Shown here: positions 9,042-45,510 of the stretch, in pieces
Layout: every line of letters starts with the position of its first letter
Numbering within the stretch: the first letter of the stretch is position 1
Assembly (NCBI RefSeq): GCF_016903815.1
Contig: NZ_CP069973.1
Source: Escherichia coli
GTDB lineage: Bacteria; Pseudomonadota; Gammaproteobacteria; Enterobacterales; Enterobacteriaceae
DNA: 64,000 nucleotides
Strand: one strand, 5' to 3'
Notes under the pieces: generated by a model
What the model was told of the DNA's origin: nothing
The model's database searches: none
What the model saw: the letters and a program-made list of their open reading frames with translations, nothing else
Made by a program: the position numbers and the translations under genes

Positions 9042-10028
9042 ATGGGTCAACTGATTGACGGCGTCTGGCATGACACCTGGTACGATACCAAATCTACCGG
9101 CGGTAAATTTCAACGTTCAGCTTCCGCATTTCGTAACTGGCTCACTGCCGATGGCGCGCCAGGCCCCACTGGCACAGGCGGTTTTATCGCAGAGAAAGAT
9201 CGTTATCATCTCTATGTTTCACTCGCCTGCCCGTGGGCGCACCGCACGCTGATCATGCGTAAACTCAAAGGACTGGAACCGTTTATTTCCGTTTCCGTAG
9301 TGAACCCGCTGATGCTGGAAAACGGCTGGACCTTTGATGACAGTTTTCCGGGTGCAACCGGCGATACACTCTATCAACATGAATTTCTGTATCAGCTTTA
9401 TCTCCACGCCGATCCACACTACAGCGGACGAGTTACTGTTCCCGTACTCTGGGACAAAAAGAACCACACCATCGTCAGCAACGAATCAGCGGAAATCATC
9501 CGCATGTTCAATACCGCGTTTGATGCGCTGGGCGCGAAAGCGGGTGATTACTACCCACCAGCCCTGCAAACGAAAATTGACGAACTTAACGGCTGGATTT
9601 ATGACACCGTTAACAATGGCGTGTATAAAGCCGGTTTTGCCACCAGCCAGCAAGCCTACGACGAGGCGGTAGTGAAAGTGTTTGAATCGCTGGCGCGACT
9701 GGAGCAGATTTTAGGCCAGCATCGTTACCTGACCGGCAACCAGCTAACCGAAGCCGATATTCGCCTGTGGACCACGCTGGTGCGTTTTGATCCGGTGTAT
9801 GTCACCCACTTCAAGTGTGATAAGCACCGCATCAGCGATTACCTGAATCTGTATGGCTTCCTGCGCGATATCTACCAGATGCCGGGGATCGCCGAAACAG
9901 TCAATTTCGATCACATCCGTAATCACTACTTCCGCAGCCATAAGACCATCAACCCTACGGGGATTATTTCAATTGGTCCGTGGCAGGATCTCGATGAACC
10001 GCATGGTCGAGATGTTCGCTTCGGTTAA
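9042..10028 (+). CDS. yqjG: glutathionyl-hydroquinone reductase (Xi-class GST)
   Basis: ORF 9021..10028; MGQLIDGVWHDTWYDTKSTGG... (328 aa), CPWAHR motif; recognised as YqjG. Confidence 0.9.
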   Translation: MGQLIDGVWHDTWYDTKSTGGKFQRSASAFRNWLTADGAPGPTGTGGFIAEKDRYHLYVSLACPWAHRTLIMRKLKGLEPFISVSVVNPLMLENGWTFDDSFPGATGDTLYQHEFLYQLYLHADPHYSGRVTVPVLWDKKNHTIVSNESAEIIRMFNTAFDALGAKAGDYYPPALQTKIDELNGWIYDTVNNGVYKAGFATSQQAYDEAVVKVFESLARLEQILGQHRYLTGNQLTEADIRLWTTLVRFDPVYVTHFKCDKHRISDYLNLYGFLRDIYQMPGIAETVNFDHIRNHYFRSHKTINPTGIISIGPWQDLDEPHGRDVRFG

Positions 10029-10033
10029 AAAAA

Positions 10034-10051
10034 GGCACCTTACGAGGTGCC
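10034..10051 (+). terminator. putative terminator hairpin after yqjG
   Basis: ggcacct-tacg-aggtgcc perfect hairpin preceded by A-run, just after yqjG stop; T-run weak on plus strand. Confidence 0.4.
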
Positions 10052-10079
10052 TCTGATAATTAGCTAAGTGCATGTTGTT

Positions 10080-10185
10080 CATGTCGGATGCGGCGTGAAC
10101 GCCTTATTAAACCCACAAAACGTTTATATTCAATATGTTACAATGACCGCGTAGGCCAGATAAGCGTAGCGCATCTGGCGATTTT
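10080..10185. repeat. REP-like palindromic elements (degenerate)
   Basis: tgtcggatgcggcgtgaacgcctta and gtaggccagataagcgtagcgcatctggcg resemble REP consensus. Confidence 0.5.
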
Positions 10186-10346
10186 GCGCTTGCCCTTATC
10201 CTTCACAGCGCCTTATTAATTCATCGCGATAATATTTACTGCCATTTCATTCACGTCTATTCTTAATTTGCTGCTTTAAAAACAAGTGATTGAGCAAAAT
10301 TGAGGCAAAAATGGACTGGTATCTGAAAGTACTAAAAAATTATGTC

Positions 10347-10354
10347 GGTTTCCG
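10347..10354. repeat. IS1 target-site duplication, left copy (ggtttccg)
   Basis: Identical 8-mer flanks both IS1 ends; a 9th base is ambiguous. Confidence 0.8.
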
Positions 10355-10409
10355 GGTAATGCTGCCAACTTACTGATTTAGTGTATGATGGTGATTTTAA
10401 GGTGCTTGC

Positions 10410-10685
10410 GTGGCTTCCATTTCCATCAGATGTCCTTCCTGCTCCGCTACTGAAGGCGTGGTGCGTAACGGCAAAAGCACTGCCGGACATCAGCGCTATC
10501 TCTGCTCTCATTGCCGTAAAACATGGCAACTACAGTTCACTTACACCGCCTCTCAGCCCGGTACGCACCAGAAAATCATTGATATGGCCATGAATGGCGT
10601 CGGATGTCGCGCCAGTGCACGCATTATGGGCGTTGGCCTCAACACGGTTTTACGTCACTTAAAAAACTCAGGCCGCAGTCGGTAA
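10410..10685 (+). CDS. insA: IS1 InsA (DNA-binding repressor)
   Basis: 91-aa [40 protein letters not shown]... zinc-finger protein of IS1. Confidence 0.93.
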
Positions 10686-11107
10686 CCTCGCGCATACAAC
10701 CGGGCAGTGATGTGATTGTCTGCGCTGAAATGGACGAACAGTGGGGCTACGTCGGTGCTAAATCACGTCAGCGCTGGCTGTTTTACGCGTATGACAGGAT
10801 ACGGAGGACGGTTGTGGCGCACGTCTTCGGTGAACGCACTCTGGCCACACTGGAGCGTCTTCTGAGCCTGCTGTCGGCCTTTGAGGTCGTGGTATGGATG
10901 ACGGATGGCTGGCCGCTGTATGAATCACGCCTGAAGGGAAAGCTGCACGTTATCAGCAAGCGTTACACTCAGCGCATTGAGCGACATAATCTGAATCTGA
11001 GACAACATCTGGCAAGGCTGGGACGGAAGTCACTGTCGTTCTCAAAATCGGTGGAGCTGCATGACAAGGTCATCGGGCATTATCTGAACATAAAACACTA
11101 TCAGTAA
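10604..11107 (+). CDS. insB: IS1 InsB frame (transposase catalytic part, expressed as InsAB' fusion)
   Basis: 167-aa ORF in -1 frame relative to insA; ...[32 protein letters not shown]... Confidence 0.9.
10652..10658 (+). other. IS1 programmed -1 ribosomal frameshift motif (A6C)
   Basis: ttAAAAAACtc near the 3' end of insA where the insB frame overlaps; known site producing InsAB' transposase. Confidence 0.8.
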
Positions 11108-11122
11108 GTTGGAGTCATTACC

Positions 11123-11130
11123 GGTTTCCG
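11123..11130. repeat. IS1 target-site duplication, right copy (ggtttccg)
   Basis: Matches 10347-10354. Confidence 0.8.
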
Positions 11131-11464
11131 GGGTCGTGCGCGGCGCAAAGAGTACTGGATGTTTATTCTGGTCAACATCATCTTTACGTTCGTGCTGGGG
11201 CTACTGGATAAAATGTTAGGCTGGCAACGTGCCGGTGGCGAAGGCATCCTGACGACAATCTACGGTATTCTGGTGTTTTTACCATGGTGGGCAGTTCAGT
11301 TCCGCCGCCTGCACGACACCGACCGCTCGGCGTGGTGGGCACTGCTATTCTTAATCCCGTTTATCGGCTGGCTTATTATCATCGTCTTTAACTGCCAGGC
11401 GGGTACGCCAGGCGAAAACCGCTTTGGACCTGATCCAAAACTGGAACCTTAAAACAAATCTACT

Positions 11465-11494
11465 CGCCGGATGTCTGACTCATCCGGCTTTTAT
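11465..11494 (+). terminator. intrinsic terminator after yhaH
   Basis: gccggatg-tctgactc-atccggc hairpin followed by ttttatc. Confidence 0.7.
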
Positions 11495-11693
11495 CATTAT
11501 GTTGATGAATGAATAATTTACTAATGTTTATTTAAAATATTTCAATGTCGTTATATAAATTACATATAAAAAATAACCATGTATTTATCTTAAATATCAA
11601 AACCTTTATAACATCCGAAAAAGAAAGATACGAATAGCATTTACACAATACCCGGAATAAACTTTCGTCACTTTTAATTAAAGGGATGTTTTT

Positions 11694-12050
11694 ATGCAGT
11701 GGTATTTATCCGTATTAAAAAATTATGTTGGTTTCTCTGGTCGCGCACGTCGTAAAGAGTACTGGATGTTTACTCTGATTAACGCCATCGTCGGCGCTAT
11801 TATCAATGTCATTCAATTGATTTTAGGTTTAGAGTTTCCGTTCCTTTCTCTCATTTACCTGGCAGCAACAATCATTCCGGTCATTGCTCTGTGCGTTCGT
11901 CGTCTGCATGATACTGACCGTTCAGGTGCGTGGGCGCTTCTCTATCTGGTACCGATCATTGGCTGGTTAGTTCTGTTTGTATTTGCCTGTTTAGAGGGCA
12001 ATTCTGGCAGCAATCGTTACGGAAACGATCCGAAGTTTGGTTCAAATTAA
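11694..12050 (+). CDS. yhaI: DUF805 inner membrane protein (paralog of yhaH)
   Basis: 118-aa ORF MQWYLSVLKNYVGFSGRARRKEYWMF...RRLHDTDRSGAWALL; shares N-terminal and RRLHDTDRS motifs with yhaH. Confidence 0.9.
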   Translation: MQWYLSVLKNYVGFSGRARRKEYWMFTLINAIVGAIINVIQLILGLEFPFLSLIYLAATIIPVIALCVRRLHDTDRSGAWALLYLVPIIGWLVLFVFACLEGNSGSNRYGNDPKFGSN

Positions 12051-12056
12051 TCTTAA

Positions 12057-12086
12057 AATTGGGGCGATATTTCGCCCCTTTTTATT
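12057..12086 (+). terminator. intrinsic terminator after yhaI
   Basis: ggggcgatatttcgcccc hairpin followed by tttttatt. Confidence 0.75.
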
Positions 12087-12100
12087 AACAATAACAAATA

Positions 12101-12997
12101 TTATTTTCCGCTAAAAAGTTTGGGAATTTCCCGCAGACACCAGGATTTCGCTTCCCCCATACTGTCACGACGCCAGGCCATAATAATATCGATCTCGCTA
12201 GTCGATTCTGGGCTGACGACACGCAACCGCCCTTCCGCGATATCTTTTTCGACCATCGGATACGGCATCGTCGCCACGCCAAGCCCCGCCAGTAATGCCT
12301 GACGTTTATCTTCAATCGTGCTCACCGTTAAACGCGGCTGTTTGTCCAGTAGCTGTACGGTCAATACCGGGCGCTCACGAGCGGTATCCGCCACCGCAAT
12401 TCCACGATATTTCACGCGCGTCACTTCAGATAACGGTTCCGGCTCCTGATGAATCGGGTGATCAGGCGCGGCAACGTAGACGTTCATTAACGTATAGAGC
12501 TTGCGCGAGTTGATCTCCGACGAGGAACGAAAATGCATATCCGGCGCGATAACGATATCCGCCCGCCCCTGCTCCAGTCGTTCCCACGCCCCCGCCAGCA
12601 CTTCGGTGATGATTGCCAGTTGGGTATTGGCTTTTGCCGCCAGTTTGTCAATTAACGGGAAAAAGGCAGGTGTCGGTACCAGCGCTTCGGTCACAATGGT
12701 GAGATGCGTTTCCCAACCGCGCGCGAGAGCTTCCGCATCGGTAGTCAGTTTATCTGCGGCTTCCAGCAAAACGCGCCCTCGCTCCAGCAACATCCTCCCG
12801 ACATTGGTGAATTTGGTGCGATGGCCCGAGCGGTCAAACAGCACCACATCAAGCTCTTCTTCCAGTTTTTGCATGGTGTAGCTAAGTGCGGAAGGCACGC
12901 GTCCCAGCTCATCCGCCGCCGCCGCAAAACTGCCCCGGCGATCGATCGCATCCATAACCCGTAGTGCTTCCAGCGTTAATGCCCTTTCTTTGGCCAT
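12101..12997 (-). CDS. yhaJ: LysR-family transcriptional regulator
   Basis: 298-aa ORF MAKERALTLEALRVMDAIDRRGSFAAAADELGRVPSALSYTMQKLEEEL... HTH plus LysR substrate domain. Confidence 0.92.
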   Translation of the reverse strand: MAKERALTLEALRVMDAIDRRGSFAAAADELGRVPSALSYTMQKLEEELDVVLFDRSGHRTKFTNVGRMLLERGRVLLEAADKLTTDAEALARGWETHLTIVTEALVPTPAFFPLIDKLAAKANTQLAIITEVLAGAWERLEQGRADIVIAPDMHFRSSSEINSRKLYTLMNVYVAAPDHPIHQEPEPLSEVTRVKYRGIAVADTARERPVLTVQLLDKQPRLTVSTIEDKRQALLAGLGVATMPYPMVEKDIAEGRLRVVSPESTSEIDIIMAWRRDSMGEAKSWCLREIPKLFSGK

Positions 12998-13101
12998 TTC
13001 GTTCTCATTCAGGAAATTTGAACATACCGGGCAGAATATCTGGCTAACAATGTAGCGTCCAGCCCCTTACCATAAAAGGAAGTAAAGAGAGGTCAAGAAT
13101 T

Positions 13102-43994: not shown

Positions 43995-44867
<873 letters not shown>

Positions 44868-45033
44868 TCATTAGTTTTTTATGATTTATCCCAATGTACT
44901 TCCCGATTAATATCGGGGAGTGCCTTAATGGTAAAGGAGATAACTAAACCTTAATAAATACATCAGTACAATACCGCAACAATAATATATTTAAAAAGAT
45001 TATATTATTCAACTTTATGGTGAGGATTACACA

Positions 45034-45510
45034 ATGAGCAGTCCAAATATTCTCTTAACCCGTATTGATAACCGTCTGGTTCACGGTCAGGTTGGCGTGA
45101 CCTGGACATCCACCATCGGTGCGAATCTGCTGGTAGTCGTGGATGATGTTGTCGCTAACGATGATATTCAACAGAAATTAATGGGTATTACCGCAGAAAC
45201 CTACGGCTTTGGCATTCGTTTCTTTACTATCGAAAAAACCATTAACGTCATCGGCAAAGCTGCACCGCATCAGAAGATCTTCCTGATTTGCCGCACGCCA
45301 CAAACGGTACGTAAATTGGTAGAAGGTGGCATTGACCTGAAAGATGTCAACGTCGGCAATATGCATTTCTCGGAAGGGAAAAAGCAAATCAGCAGTAAAG
45401 TTTATGTCGATGACCAGGATCTCACGGACTTACGTTTTATTAAACAACGTGGCGTGAATGTTTTCATTCAGGACGTCCCTGGCGATCAAAAAGAACAAAT
45501 CCCTGACTAA
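45034..45510 (+). CDS. agaB: PTS galactosamine-specific EIIB
   Basis: 158-aa ORF MSSPNILLTRIDNRLVHGQVGVTWTSTIGANLLVVVDD... Confidence 0.9.
   Translation: MSSPNILLTRIDNRLVHGQVGVTWTSTIGANLLVVVDDVVANDDIQQKLMGITAETYGFGIRFFTIEKTINVIGKAAPHQKIFLICRTPQTVRKLVEGGIDLKDVNVGNMHFSEGKKQISSKVYVDDQDLTDLRFIKQRGVNVFIQDVPGDQKEQIPD

Follow-up and report, generated by a model that had tools for sequence, protein, structure and literature searches.

The bacterial DUF805 family is represented by two adjacent genes, yhaH and yhaI, in a 64-kb window of the Escherichia coli chromosome, the whole stretch of DNA that was analyzed (mean guanine-plus-cytosine [GC] content 51%). The two genes lie on the same strand, 241 bp apart. 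The region of interest, positions 11123-12050, comprises the 3' part of yhaH, a very AT-rich spacer, and yhaI. Position 11123 is the base directly 3' of the right end of an IS1 element inserted in yhaH. Neither a further DUF805 copy nor a second IS1 was found in the 64-kb window. A 2051-bp query over the region is 100% identical to strain 7/2 (NZ_CP023820) and to at least 14 further complete genomes. The coordinates of the features are collected in Table 1.

Table 1. Features of the yhaH-yhaI locus, in window coordinates
Feature	Position	Strand	Description
yhaH 5' fragment	10311-10354	+	Start codon and codons 1-14; still joined to the yhaH promoter and leader
IS1	10355-11122	+	768 bp; insA 10410-10685, insB frame 10604-11107
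yhaH 3' fragment	11123-11452	+	Codons 13-121 and stop, with the duplicated target copy; promoterless
AT-rich spacer	11453-11693	+	241 bp, 26.6% GC; terminator and yhaI regulatory region
yhaH intrinsic terminator	11466-11497	+	8-bp GC-rich stem, 7-nt loop, U tract
CpxR-box-like tandem pentamer (candidate)	11517-11531	-	ATAAACATTAGTAAA; one mismatch to GTAAA-N5-GTAAA
Conserved upstream block	11595-11623	+	TATCAAAACCTTTATAACATCCGAAAAAG; includes -10-like TATAAC at 11607-11612
Candidate yhaI -10 hexamer	11658-11663	+	TAAACT; position conserved across species (TAnAnT)
yhaI Shine-Dalgarno	11681-11686	+	AAGGGA, 7 nt before ATG
yhaI	11694-12050	+	DUF805, 118 aa, intact, non-K-12 allele; product is RefSeq WP_001198802.1
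Hyperdivergent allelic block in yhaI	11829-12001	+	Codons 46-103: transmembrane segment (TM) 2, RRLHDTDRS loop, TM3
yhaI terminator	12061-12083	+	GGGGCGA-TATT-TCGCCCC and T run; between the convergent yhaI and yhaJ
yhaJ	12101-12997	-	LysR-type regulator, convergent to yhaI; right edge of the conserved yqjG-[DUF805]n-yhaJ-yhaK synteny

YhaH and YhaI are 53% identical over 118 amino acids (aa) (BLASTP E 1e-44), and the motifs MxWYLxVLKNYVGFxGRARRKEYWMF and RRLHDTDRS are common to both. The first 96 nucleotides (nt) of the two genes are 78% identical. In a whole-protein hidden Markov model (HMM) search with Pfam DUF805 (PF05656), for which the gathering score is 25.7 bits, YhaH restored in silico scored 120.9 bits (E 4.5e-35) and YhaI 109.1 bits (E 2e-31). 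The original prediction, which was made from the sequence alone and placed the two proteins in one family, had named the failure of such a search as the result that would speak against it; since both pass the threshold by a wide margin, they do belong together in DUF805. The hallmarks of the family are present: GRxxRxEYW near the N-terminus, RRLHD between hydrophobic segments, and three hydrophobic helices. Across 32 homologues from several phyla, twelve residues do not vary: R17, E22, F26, P66, R73, R74, H76, D77, P91, N111, G114, and P117. Among the matches listed, full-length identity to E. coli YhaI is 45-58% for DUF805 proteins of Firmicutes, Actinobacteria, Verrucomicrobia, and Proteobacteria. 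Such conservation across phyla appears unusually high for a small membrane protein.

An AlphaFold2 model of YhaH built with 32 homologues (pLDDT 91, pTM 0.79) predicts helices at residues 2-13, 20-44, 54-77, and 82-103, that is, two long helices preceded by an amphipathic one at the N-terminus and followed by a third that has a kink at the invariant P91. No relative of YhaH with a solved structure was found, either by sequence or by fold. The defence-system models of PADLOC gave no match, NCBIfam gave sub-threshold matches only, and the only match in PHROGs was an uninformative "membrane protein" moron family. A C-terminal fusion of YhaH to GFP fluoresces at the membrane, and YhaH is YidC-dependent (PMC3225971).

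Interruption of yhaH by IS1

IS1 was recognized by a length of ~768 bp, inverted repeats of ~23 bp, insA and insB' joined by a frameshift, and a target duplication of 8-9 bp. The element in yhaH is 768 bp long with matching ends (GGTAATGCTGCCAACTTACTGAT / GGTAATGACTCCAACTTACTGAT), contains the insA and insB frames, and is flanked by an 8-bp target duplication, GGTTTCCG, at 10347-10354 and 11123-11130. RefSeq labels it "IS1 family transposase, programmed frameshift". The yhaH sequence upstream of the element, 10311-10354, is translated as MDWYLKVLKNYVGF, after which the frame enters IS1 and stops; tblastn with YhaI as the query also matches this fragment, at 10311-10352. When IS1 and one copy of the duplication are deleted in silico, a 121-aa YhaH open reading frame (ORF) is restored (10311-10354 plus 11131-11452), and its coding sequence differs from that of K-12 only by synonymous changes.

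The insertion cuts off only the yhaH promoter and the first 14 codons, which include the start codon and encode the nearly invariant N-terminus. Judged from this arrangement, IS1::yhaH is most likely a null allele. The Prokaryotic Genome Annotation Pipeline (PGAP)/RefSeq annotation gives 11117-11452 as an intact 111-aa coding sequence (CDS) (WP_032152737.1), with an ATT start inside the IS1 end and no pseudogene mark. The next ATG in the remnant is at 11159 (Met25), and the 97-aa product that begins there scores 91.4 bits on DUF805. The claim that yhaH is inactivated in this strain, leaving yhaI as the sole intact copy, thus holds for the window, the gene being split by IS1, with the caveat that little is severed and that the remnant is annotated as a CDS. 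Of 5426 complete E. coli genomes, 78 carry this same insertion, which is a single clonal event.

The loss of yhaH has a documented phenotype in another strain. A yhaH frameshift/stop mutant of strain TK001 resists the phages PhiWec188 and PhiWec190 and becomes sensitive again upon complementation (bioRxiv 10.1101/2024.11.29.626071; PMC12695924). The two phages belong to the Stephanstirmvirinae ("Wecvirus"), and YhaH is described as an inner-membrane requirement besides lipopolysaccharide (LPS) (bioRxiv 10.1101/2024.11.29.626071; PMC12695924). The statement of the original prediction that the function of DUF805 proteins is unknown is therefore outdated, YhaH being required for infection by PhiWec188 and PhiWec190. 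Because the Wecvirus phages require YhaH, the clone with the IS1 insertion should resist YhaH-dependent phages.

The AT-rich spacer and the control of yhaI

The spacer between the two genes was predicted to be extremely AT-rich and to follow a yhaH terminator, and both features were found. Only 0.27% of all 241-nt windows have a GC content equal to or lower than that of the spacer, which is about half the mean of the whole stretch, and the GC minima of the 64 kb lie inside it: 22.4% for 241 nt (at 11489) and 14% for 100 nt (at 11512). The only other stretches below 30% GC, measured in 241-nt windows, are 25854-26397, 27651-28419, and 44818-45058. The spacer opens with a strong hairpin at 11466-11488 followed by the U tract UUUUAUCAUU; the folding energy is -15 kcal/mol, the z score -5.2, and none of 200 shuffles was as good. 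The terminator of yhaI consists of a hairpin at 12061-12078 plus UUUUUAUU (-15.9 kcal/mol, z -4.7).

The yhaI leader was compared in six taxa: E. coli, Citrobacter rodentium, C. amalonaticus, Intestinirhabdus alba, Superficieibacter electus, and an Enterobacteriaceae metagenome-assembled genome (MAG). The last 150 nt before the yhaI-type start are 21-29% GC in all six; thus, an AT-rich leader is a trait of yhaI-type genes and no accident of this strain. The block at 11595-11623 aligns with TATCAAATTCTTTATATTGTCCTAAAAAT of Superficieibacter and TATCAAACCCTTTATATTATCCTAAAAAT of the MAG. At the candidate -10 hexamer, T1, A2, and T6 are invariant in a seven-sequence alignment, and Citrobacter and Intestinirhabdus have TGnTATATT / TGnTATGTT at this place. 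The third base of the hexamer, A at 11660, is specific to this strain among seven E. coli compared: the other six, K-12 among them, have G (TAGACT), and one of the G-carrying strains encodes an identical YhaI protein. The A/GGG-ATG-TTT context of the start codon is kept in all yhaI-type leaders compared.

Among the same number of E. coli, the diversity of the spacer is 0.013, close to that of yhaH (0.012) and yhaJ (0.014), so that within the species the spacer is conserved to the same degree as coding DNA. The most variable segment is the yqjG-yhaH intergenic region (0.064). REP-like palindromic repeats occupy this region, and an isrD-like Rfam match lies over the yqjG terminator (features at 10060-10200 and 10028-10072). 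The match is sub-threshold (24 bits vs a gathering score of 37) and was the only hit of a permissive Rfam scan of 9900-12300, which gave nothing in the spacer at E up to 1. The H-NS nucleation motif TCGATAAATT, with up to two mismatches, has 99 matches in the window, one of them in the spacer, and is not discriminating.

An H-NS-type promoter had been proposed for yhaI, and this fits published data. Ler is an H-NS antagonist. The regulation figures for H-NS, Ler, and CpxR, like the phage requirement, are taken from papers on other strains. In K-12, yhaH is listed as H-NS-bound and its neighbors yqjF and yhaK are not (Higashi et al., PMC4720273 S2 Table). In enterohemorrhagic E. coli (EHEC), Ler activates yhaI alone, 36-fold, the strongest effect of that study outside the enterocyte effacement locus (LEE) (PMC3891560). 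Overproduction of CpxR in MG1655 increased yhaI 3.2-fold in arrays and 40.3-fold in quantitative reverse transcription PCR, and yhaH 1.9-fold (PMC2731931). It is this 40-fold induction that makes the CpxR-box-like pentamer in the spacer relevant. Two overlapping CpxR-box-like matches, with one mismatch each, also lie at 13072-13096 in the divergent yhaJ-yhaK intergenic region. In Salmonella, yhaH is repressed by the small RNA SdsR, whose target is a leader belonging to yhaH itself (PMC5137417). The terminator after yhaH and the differing responses of the two genes argue that yhaH and yhaI are separate transcription units, and H-NS-type control of the yhaI promoter is a reasonable reading of this literature from other strains.

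Taken together, the locus probably consists of two separately transcribed DUF805 inner-membrane genes, of which the core gene, yhaH, is broken by IS1 and the accessory gene, yhaI, is under a silenced AT-rich promoter, the IS1 allele being expected to be phage-resistant. In this model, yhaH would be expressed from a promoter and leader of its own, upstream of 10311, and its transcripts would end at the intrinsic terminator, whereas transcription of yhaI would start from the AT-rich DNA downstream of this terminator. The spacer would act as a normally silenced promoter region of the H-NS-bound kind, which would open with an antagonist or activator, i.e., Ler in EHEC or the Cpx envelope-stress regulator CpxR in K-12. 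Insertion of IS1 after codon 14 would deprive yhaH of the promoter, the start codon, and the conserved N-terminus, and yhaI would be untouched because its expression would be independent of yhaH transcription.

Several points weigh against this model. i) A sigma-70 consensus scan of 11453-11693 found no good -35/-10 pair with 16-18 bp spacing, so that the place of the yhaI promoter is guessed from what is conserved between species. ii) One-mismatch CpxR-like boxes are not enriched: 8 occur in the window vs 3.4 expected, and at least 8 turn up in 4 of 100 shuffles. iii) The paper on CpxR counts many of the responsive genes as possibly indirect effects (PMC2731931). iv) The H-NS record is from K-12 and names yhaH; yhaI is missing from its orthologue table (PMC4720273). 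v) The Ler and Cpx data come from the K-12-type yhaI allele; the spacer, however, differs from that of K-12 at only 3 positions. vi) The yhaH remnant retains 107 of the 121 codons, in frame after the insB stop (11105-11107), and the internal ATG at 11159 has a weak AAAGAG upstream; on this sequence, some truncated YhaH product might be made. vii) The resistance that IS1::yhaH would confer is a prediction only, by extension from strain TK001. viii) The fluorescence of the C-terminal GFP fusion clashes with the topology expected from the positive-inside rule on three helices, N-in with a periplasmic C-terminus.

Two other readings of the spacer were considered. If yhaH and yhaI formed one operon and the spacer had no promoter of its own, IS1 would silence yhaI by polarity. 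The genes are close and in the same orientation, the spacer scan found no consensus promoter, and Bury-Mone et al. put "yhaH yhaI yhaJ" on one row of genes or putative operons (PMC2731931). However, yhaJ is on the opposite strand, so this row cannot be an operon. A single transcript is highly improbable given the strong terminator after yhaH, the response of yhaI to Ler and CpxR, which is far above that of yhaH, and the yhaI-type gene of Intestinirhabdus, which has an AT-rich leader and no yhaH upstream. Alternatively, the spacer could be conserved because it encodes an unannotated small RNA or small protein. Its coding-like conservation within E. coli would agree with this, as would two ORFs, of 30 aa (11545-11637, + strand) and 38 aa (11532-11648, - strand). 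ORFs of that size are, however, expected in 27% GC DNA, with few stop-free constraints on start codons, and in other genera the alignment of the spacers is confined to the surroundings of the -10-like and Shine-Dalgarno regions, which means that the small ORFs are not conserved. The lack of an Rfam match and the lack of a structure signal in the yhaI leader (11664-11720, z 0.09) further make a hidden gene a very remote prospect. The separately controlled, silenced yhaI promoter is preferred as the probable role of the spacer.

Origin and variation of the yhaH-yhaI pair

The synteny yqjG-[DUF805]n-yhaJ-yhaK is conserved across the Enterobacteriaceae, with different contents between yqjG and yhaJ. 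Only a yhaH-type gene is present in E. albertii, the GTDB E. coli representative, two other Citrobacter species, Klebsiella oxytoca, Enterobacter, Pluralibacter, Cedecea, Siccibacter, and Shimwellia; only a yhaI-type gene is present in Intestinirhabdus alba. Three DUF805 copies are found in Superficieibacter electus and four in the Enterobacteriaceae MAG. Two more divergent DUF805 subtypes, MKWFWYCLKNY... and a 140-aa form, also occur in the yqjG-yhaJ interval. Close counterparts in layout are C. rodentium and C. amalonaticus, in which, as in E. coli, yqjG is followed by yhaH (121 aa); next comes a ~225-bp AT-rich spacer that contains a terminator, and beyond it lie a yhaI-type gene (119 aa) and the convergent yhaJ. 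Their YhaH proteins are 86-89% identical to that of E. coli but the YhaI proteins only 61-64%, and their spacers can be aligned only around the -10-like and Shine-Dalgarno region. Between genera, YhaH identity is 74-89% and YhaI identity 61-64%. From these comparisons, yhaI appears to be a faster-evolving accessory copy and yhaH the conserved core copy.

Being adjacent, in the same orientation, and homologous over the full length, yhaH and yhaI have the attributes of tandem duplicates. In a neighbor-joining tree of 47 homologues, bootstrap support is 76% for the YhaI clade, 99% for the YhaH clade, and only 25% for the grouping of the two. The split between the H- and I-types thus appears to be old and their adjacency recurrent. 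The view that the genes are old tandem duplicates is plausible but unproven: the age of the separate clades and the adjacency of the two types in C. rodentium, C. amalonaticus, and Superficieibacter stand in its favor, and the weakly supported sister relation and the patchy occurrence of yhaI do not. Both duplication in situ with many losses and spread of an I-type cassette are possible, the latter because yhaI is patchy and lower in GC.

In the cassette alternative, yhaI and its AT-rich leader are a ~650-bp unit that spread among the Enterobacteriaceae by recombination via the yhaH and yhaJ flanks and is silenced by H-NS as foreign DNA, with no duplication of yhaH in situ. The GC content is 43% in yhaI and 27% in its leader vs 51% in yhaH, and E. 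albertii and the nine other Enterobacteriaceae loci that were examined lack yhaI. The weak H+I grouping is in line with this, as is the relation of YhaI to homologues of Paenibacillus, Exiguobacterium, and Streptomyces, which are, among the matches listed, as close to it (55-58%) as YhaH is.

The distribution within E. coli bears on the same question. In the 5426 complete genomes, yhaH-spacer-yhaI is present in 4343, and ~1075 match yhaH only, i.e., ~19% are without yhaI. In the yhaI-less strains (e.g., U15A), yhaH ends with ...DPKLEQE-stop and is followed by a different hairpin, GCACCTTGTAAAAGGTGC, and then directly by yhaJ. E. albertii has the same yhaH end and hairpin, whereas the yhaI-bearing strains have ...DPKLEP-stop and another terminator, which again favors the cassette. 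The E. albertii locus and one more contain a ~170-bp REP-like insert between duplicated halves of the yhaI-less-type hairpin. The possibility that the yhaI-less strains are yhaH/yhaI recombinants ending ...KFGSN was rejected, the actual end being ...LEQE with its own terminator. Chimeras of the yhaH'-'yhaI type, with 5' crossovers, do exist and have arisen at least twice independently.

An unusual feature of yhaI is its hyperdivergent block. Compared with K-12, yhaI has 1 difference in the first 135 nt, 57 in nt 136-308 (173 nt), and 0 in the last 46 nt. It is thus the other of two E. coli alleles, with 86% protein identity overall to K-12 YhaI and 67-69% nucleotide identity in the 173-bp block. 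The proportion of synonymous differences (pS) in the block is 0.70, corresponding to a synonymous divergence (dS) of about 2, and the nonsynonymous divergence (dN) is 0.19; dS in the flanking genes is 0.07-0.13. The low dN/dS points to import of a functional, long-diverged sequence over rapid adaptive change. Gene conversion from yhaH was rejected as the source, the block being only 49-55% identical to yhaH; import from a sampled yhaI-type gene was likewise rejected, at 53-65% identity. The allele seen here occurs in 2290 genomes and the K-12 type in 2081, and the haplotype shares are 42% for allele A, 38% for allele B, and ~19% for the absence of yhaI. Recombinants between the two yhaI alleles exist, e.g., P0004.

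This second, sharply bounded, import-like block inside yhaI also speaks for transfer of the cassette. Against it, none of the sampled yhaI-type genes is a donor; closer relatives may lie beyond the homologue matches listed. The recurrence at this site of an H-type gene followed by an I-type gene, in C. rodentium, C. amalonaticus, Superficieibacter, and the MAG, and the presence there of the I-type alone in Intestinirhabdus, would also fit an old pair with repeated loss, and loss by recombination is seen directly in the two independent chimeras. Spread of a cassette is accordingly regarded as a tentative explanation, somewhat doubtful as it stands.

Other disruptions are found at the locus: a yhaH frameshift in CH4793, an IS1A-associated loss of the 5' part of yhaI in JX21CE35, and frameshifted YhaI products, which are common (P0055 in 345 contigs, P0073 in 190 contigs, plus a Shigella sonnei form). 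These and other variations may be taken together as a footprint of selection by phages that depend on YhaH or YhaI: the yqjG-yhaJ DUF805 locus would be a phage-driven hot spot, with YhaH as an inner-membrane entry factor and YhaI as an inducible alternative, decoy, or replacement. Such a proposal, which we consider unlikely, may draw on the clonal IS1 knock-out, the independent frameshift, the three haplotypes, the saturated 173-bp block, the chimeras, and the 1-4 copies in related genera.

The IS1 insertion itself could quite conceivably be neutral or hitch-hiking in an IS1-rich clone, unrelated to phage pressure, an explanation to which we give almost even weight. It is a single clonal event: the listed genomes share one junction and are 100% identical over 2 kb. 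The median number of matching places per genome is 11, and almost all of these are copies of IS1. On the other hand, loss of yhaH in another strain led to resistance to defined phages and was reversed by complementation, and the CH4793 frameshift arose independently. Furthermore, YhaH is otherwise identical (WP_000384145.1) in K-12, O157:H7, and three other lineages, which argues that the gene is normally under strong constraint. Whatever brought the insertion to its present frequency, a broken core gene beside a separately controlled accessory gene is the structure that we favor for this locus.

Significance and relation to known systems

The gene pair, H-NS binding at the locus, and the responses of yhaI to Ler and CpxR are already known and published. 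The locus is of modest additional interest for its haplotype structure, hyperdivergent block, recurrent chimeras, and link to phage. DUF805 is a very widespread family, in which identity is 50-58% even for homologues in Firmicutes and Actinobacteria; it has no structure and no known biochemical role, and the need of phages for YhaH is now its one phenotype. The natural IS1 knock-out in a human-associated clone (78 complete genomes) leads to a prediction of phage resistance, which is relevant to host range in phage therapy. In addition, a three-haplotype polymorphism with a sharply bounded block is unusual for a chromosomal gene of 118 codons and provides a natural allelic series for the study of DUF805 function.

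The reference for the locus is E. coli K-12, in which yhaH (b3103) and yhaI (b3104) encode DUF805 inner-membrane proteins. The genes, their order, and their flanks (yqjG upstream, yhaJ and yhaK downstream) are the same; yhaH is uninterrupted in K-12, whereas here it carries IS1.

The control of yhaI recalls that of the LEE operons of EHEC and enteropathogenic E. coli (EPEC), which are silenced by H-NS and counter-silenced by Ler. Like these, yhaI has extremely AT-rich upstream DNA, a published H-NS-bound region at its locus, and strong activation by Ler. Unlike these, it lies in the chromosome but not within any pathogenicity island, and it is also induced by CpxR. This strain may have no Ler, and control of the spacer by H-NS and Ler is putative.

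Host factors for phage genome entry include ManYZ for lambda, PtsG for HK97, and NfrB for N4. YhaH is far smaller (121 aa) than these inner-membrane factors and is without solved-structure relatives, and the step that is blocked in its absence could be adsorption, DNA entry, or a later one. It resembles them in its location in the inner membrane and in that its loss blocks particular phages, in this case PhiWec188 and PhiWec190, which use LPS as their receptor.

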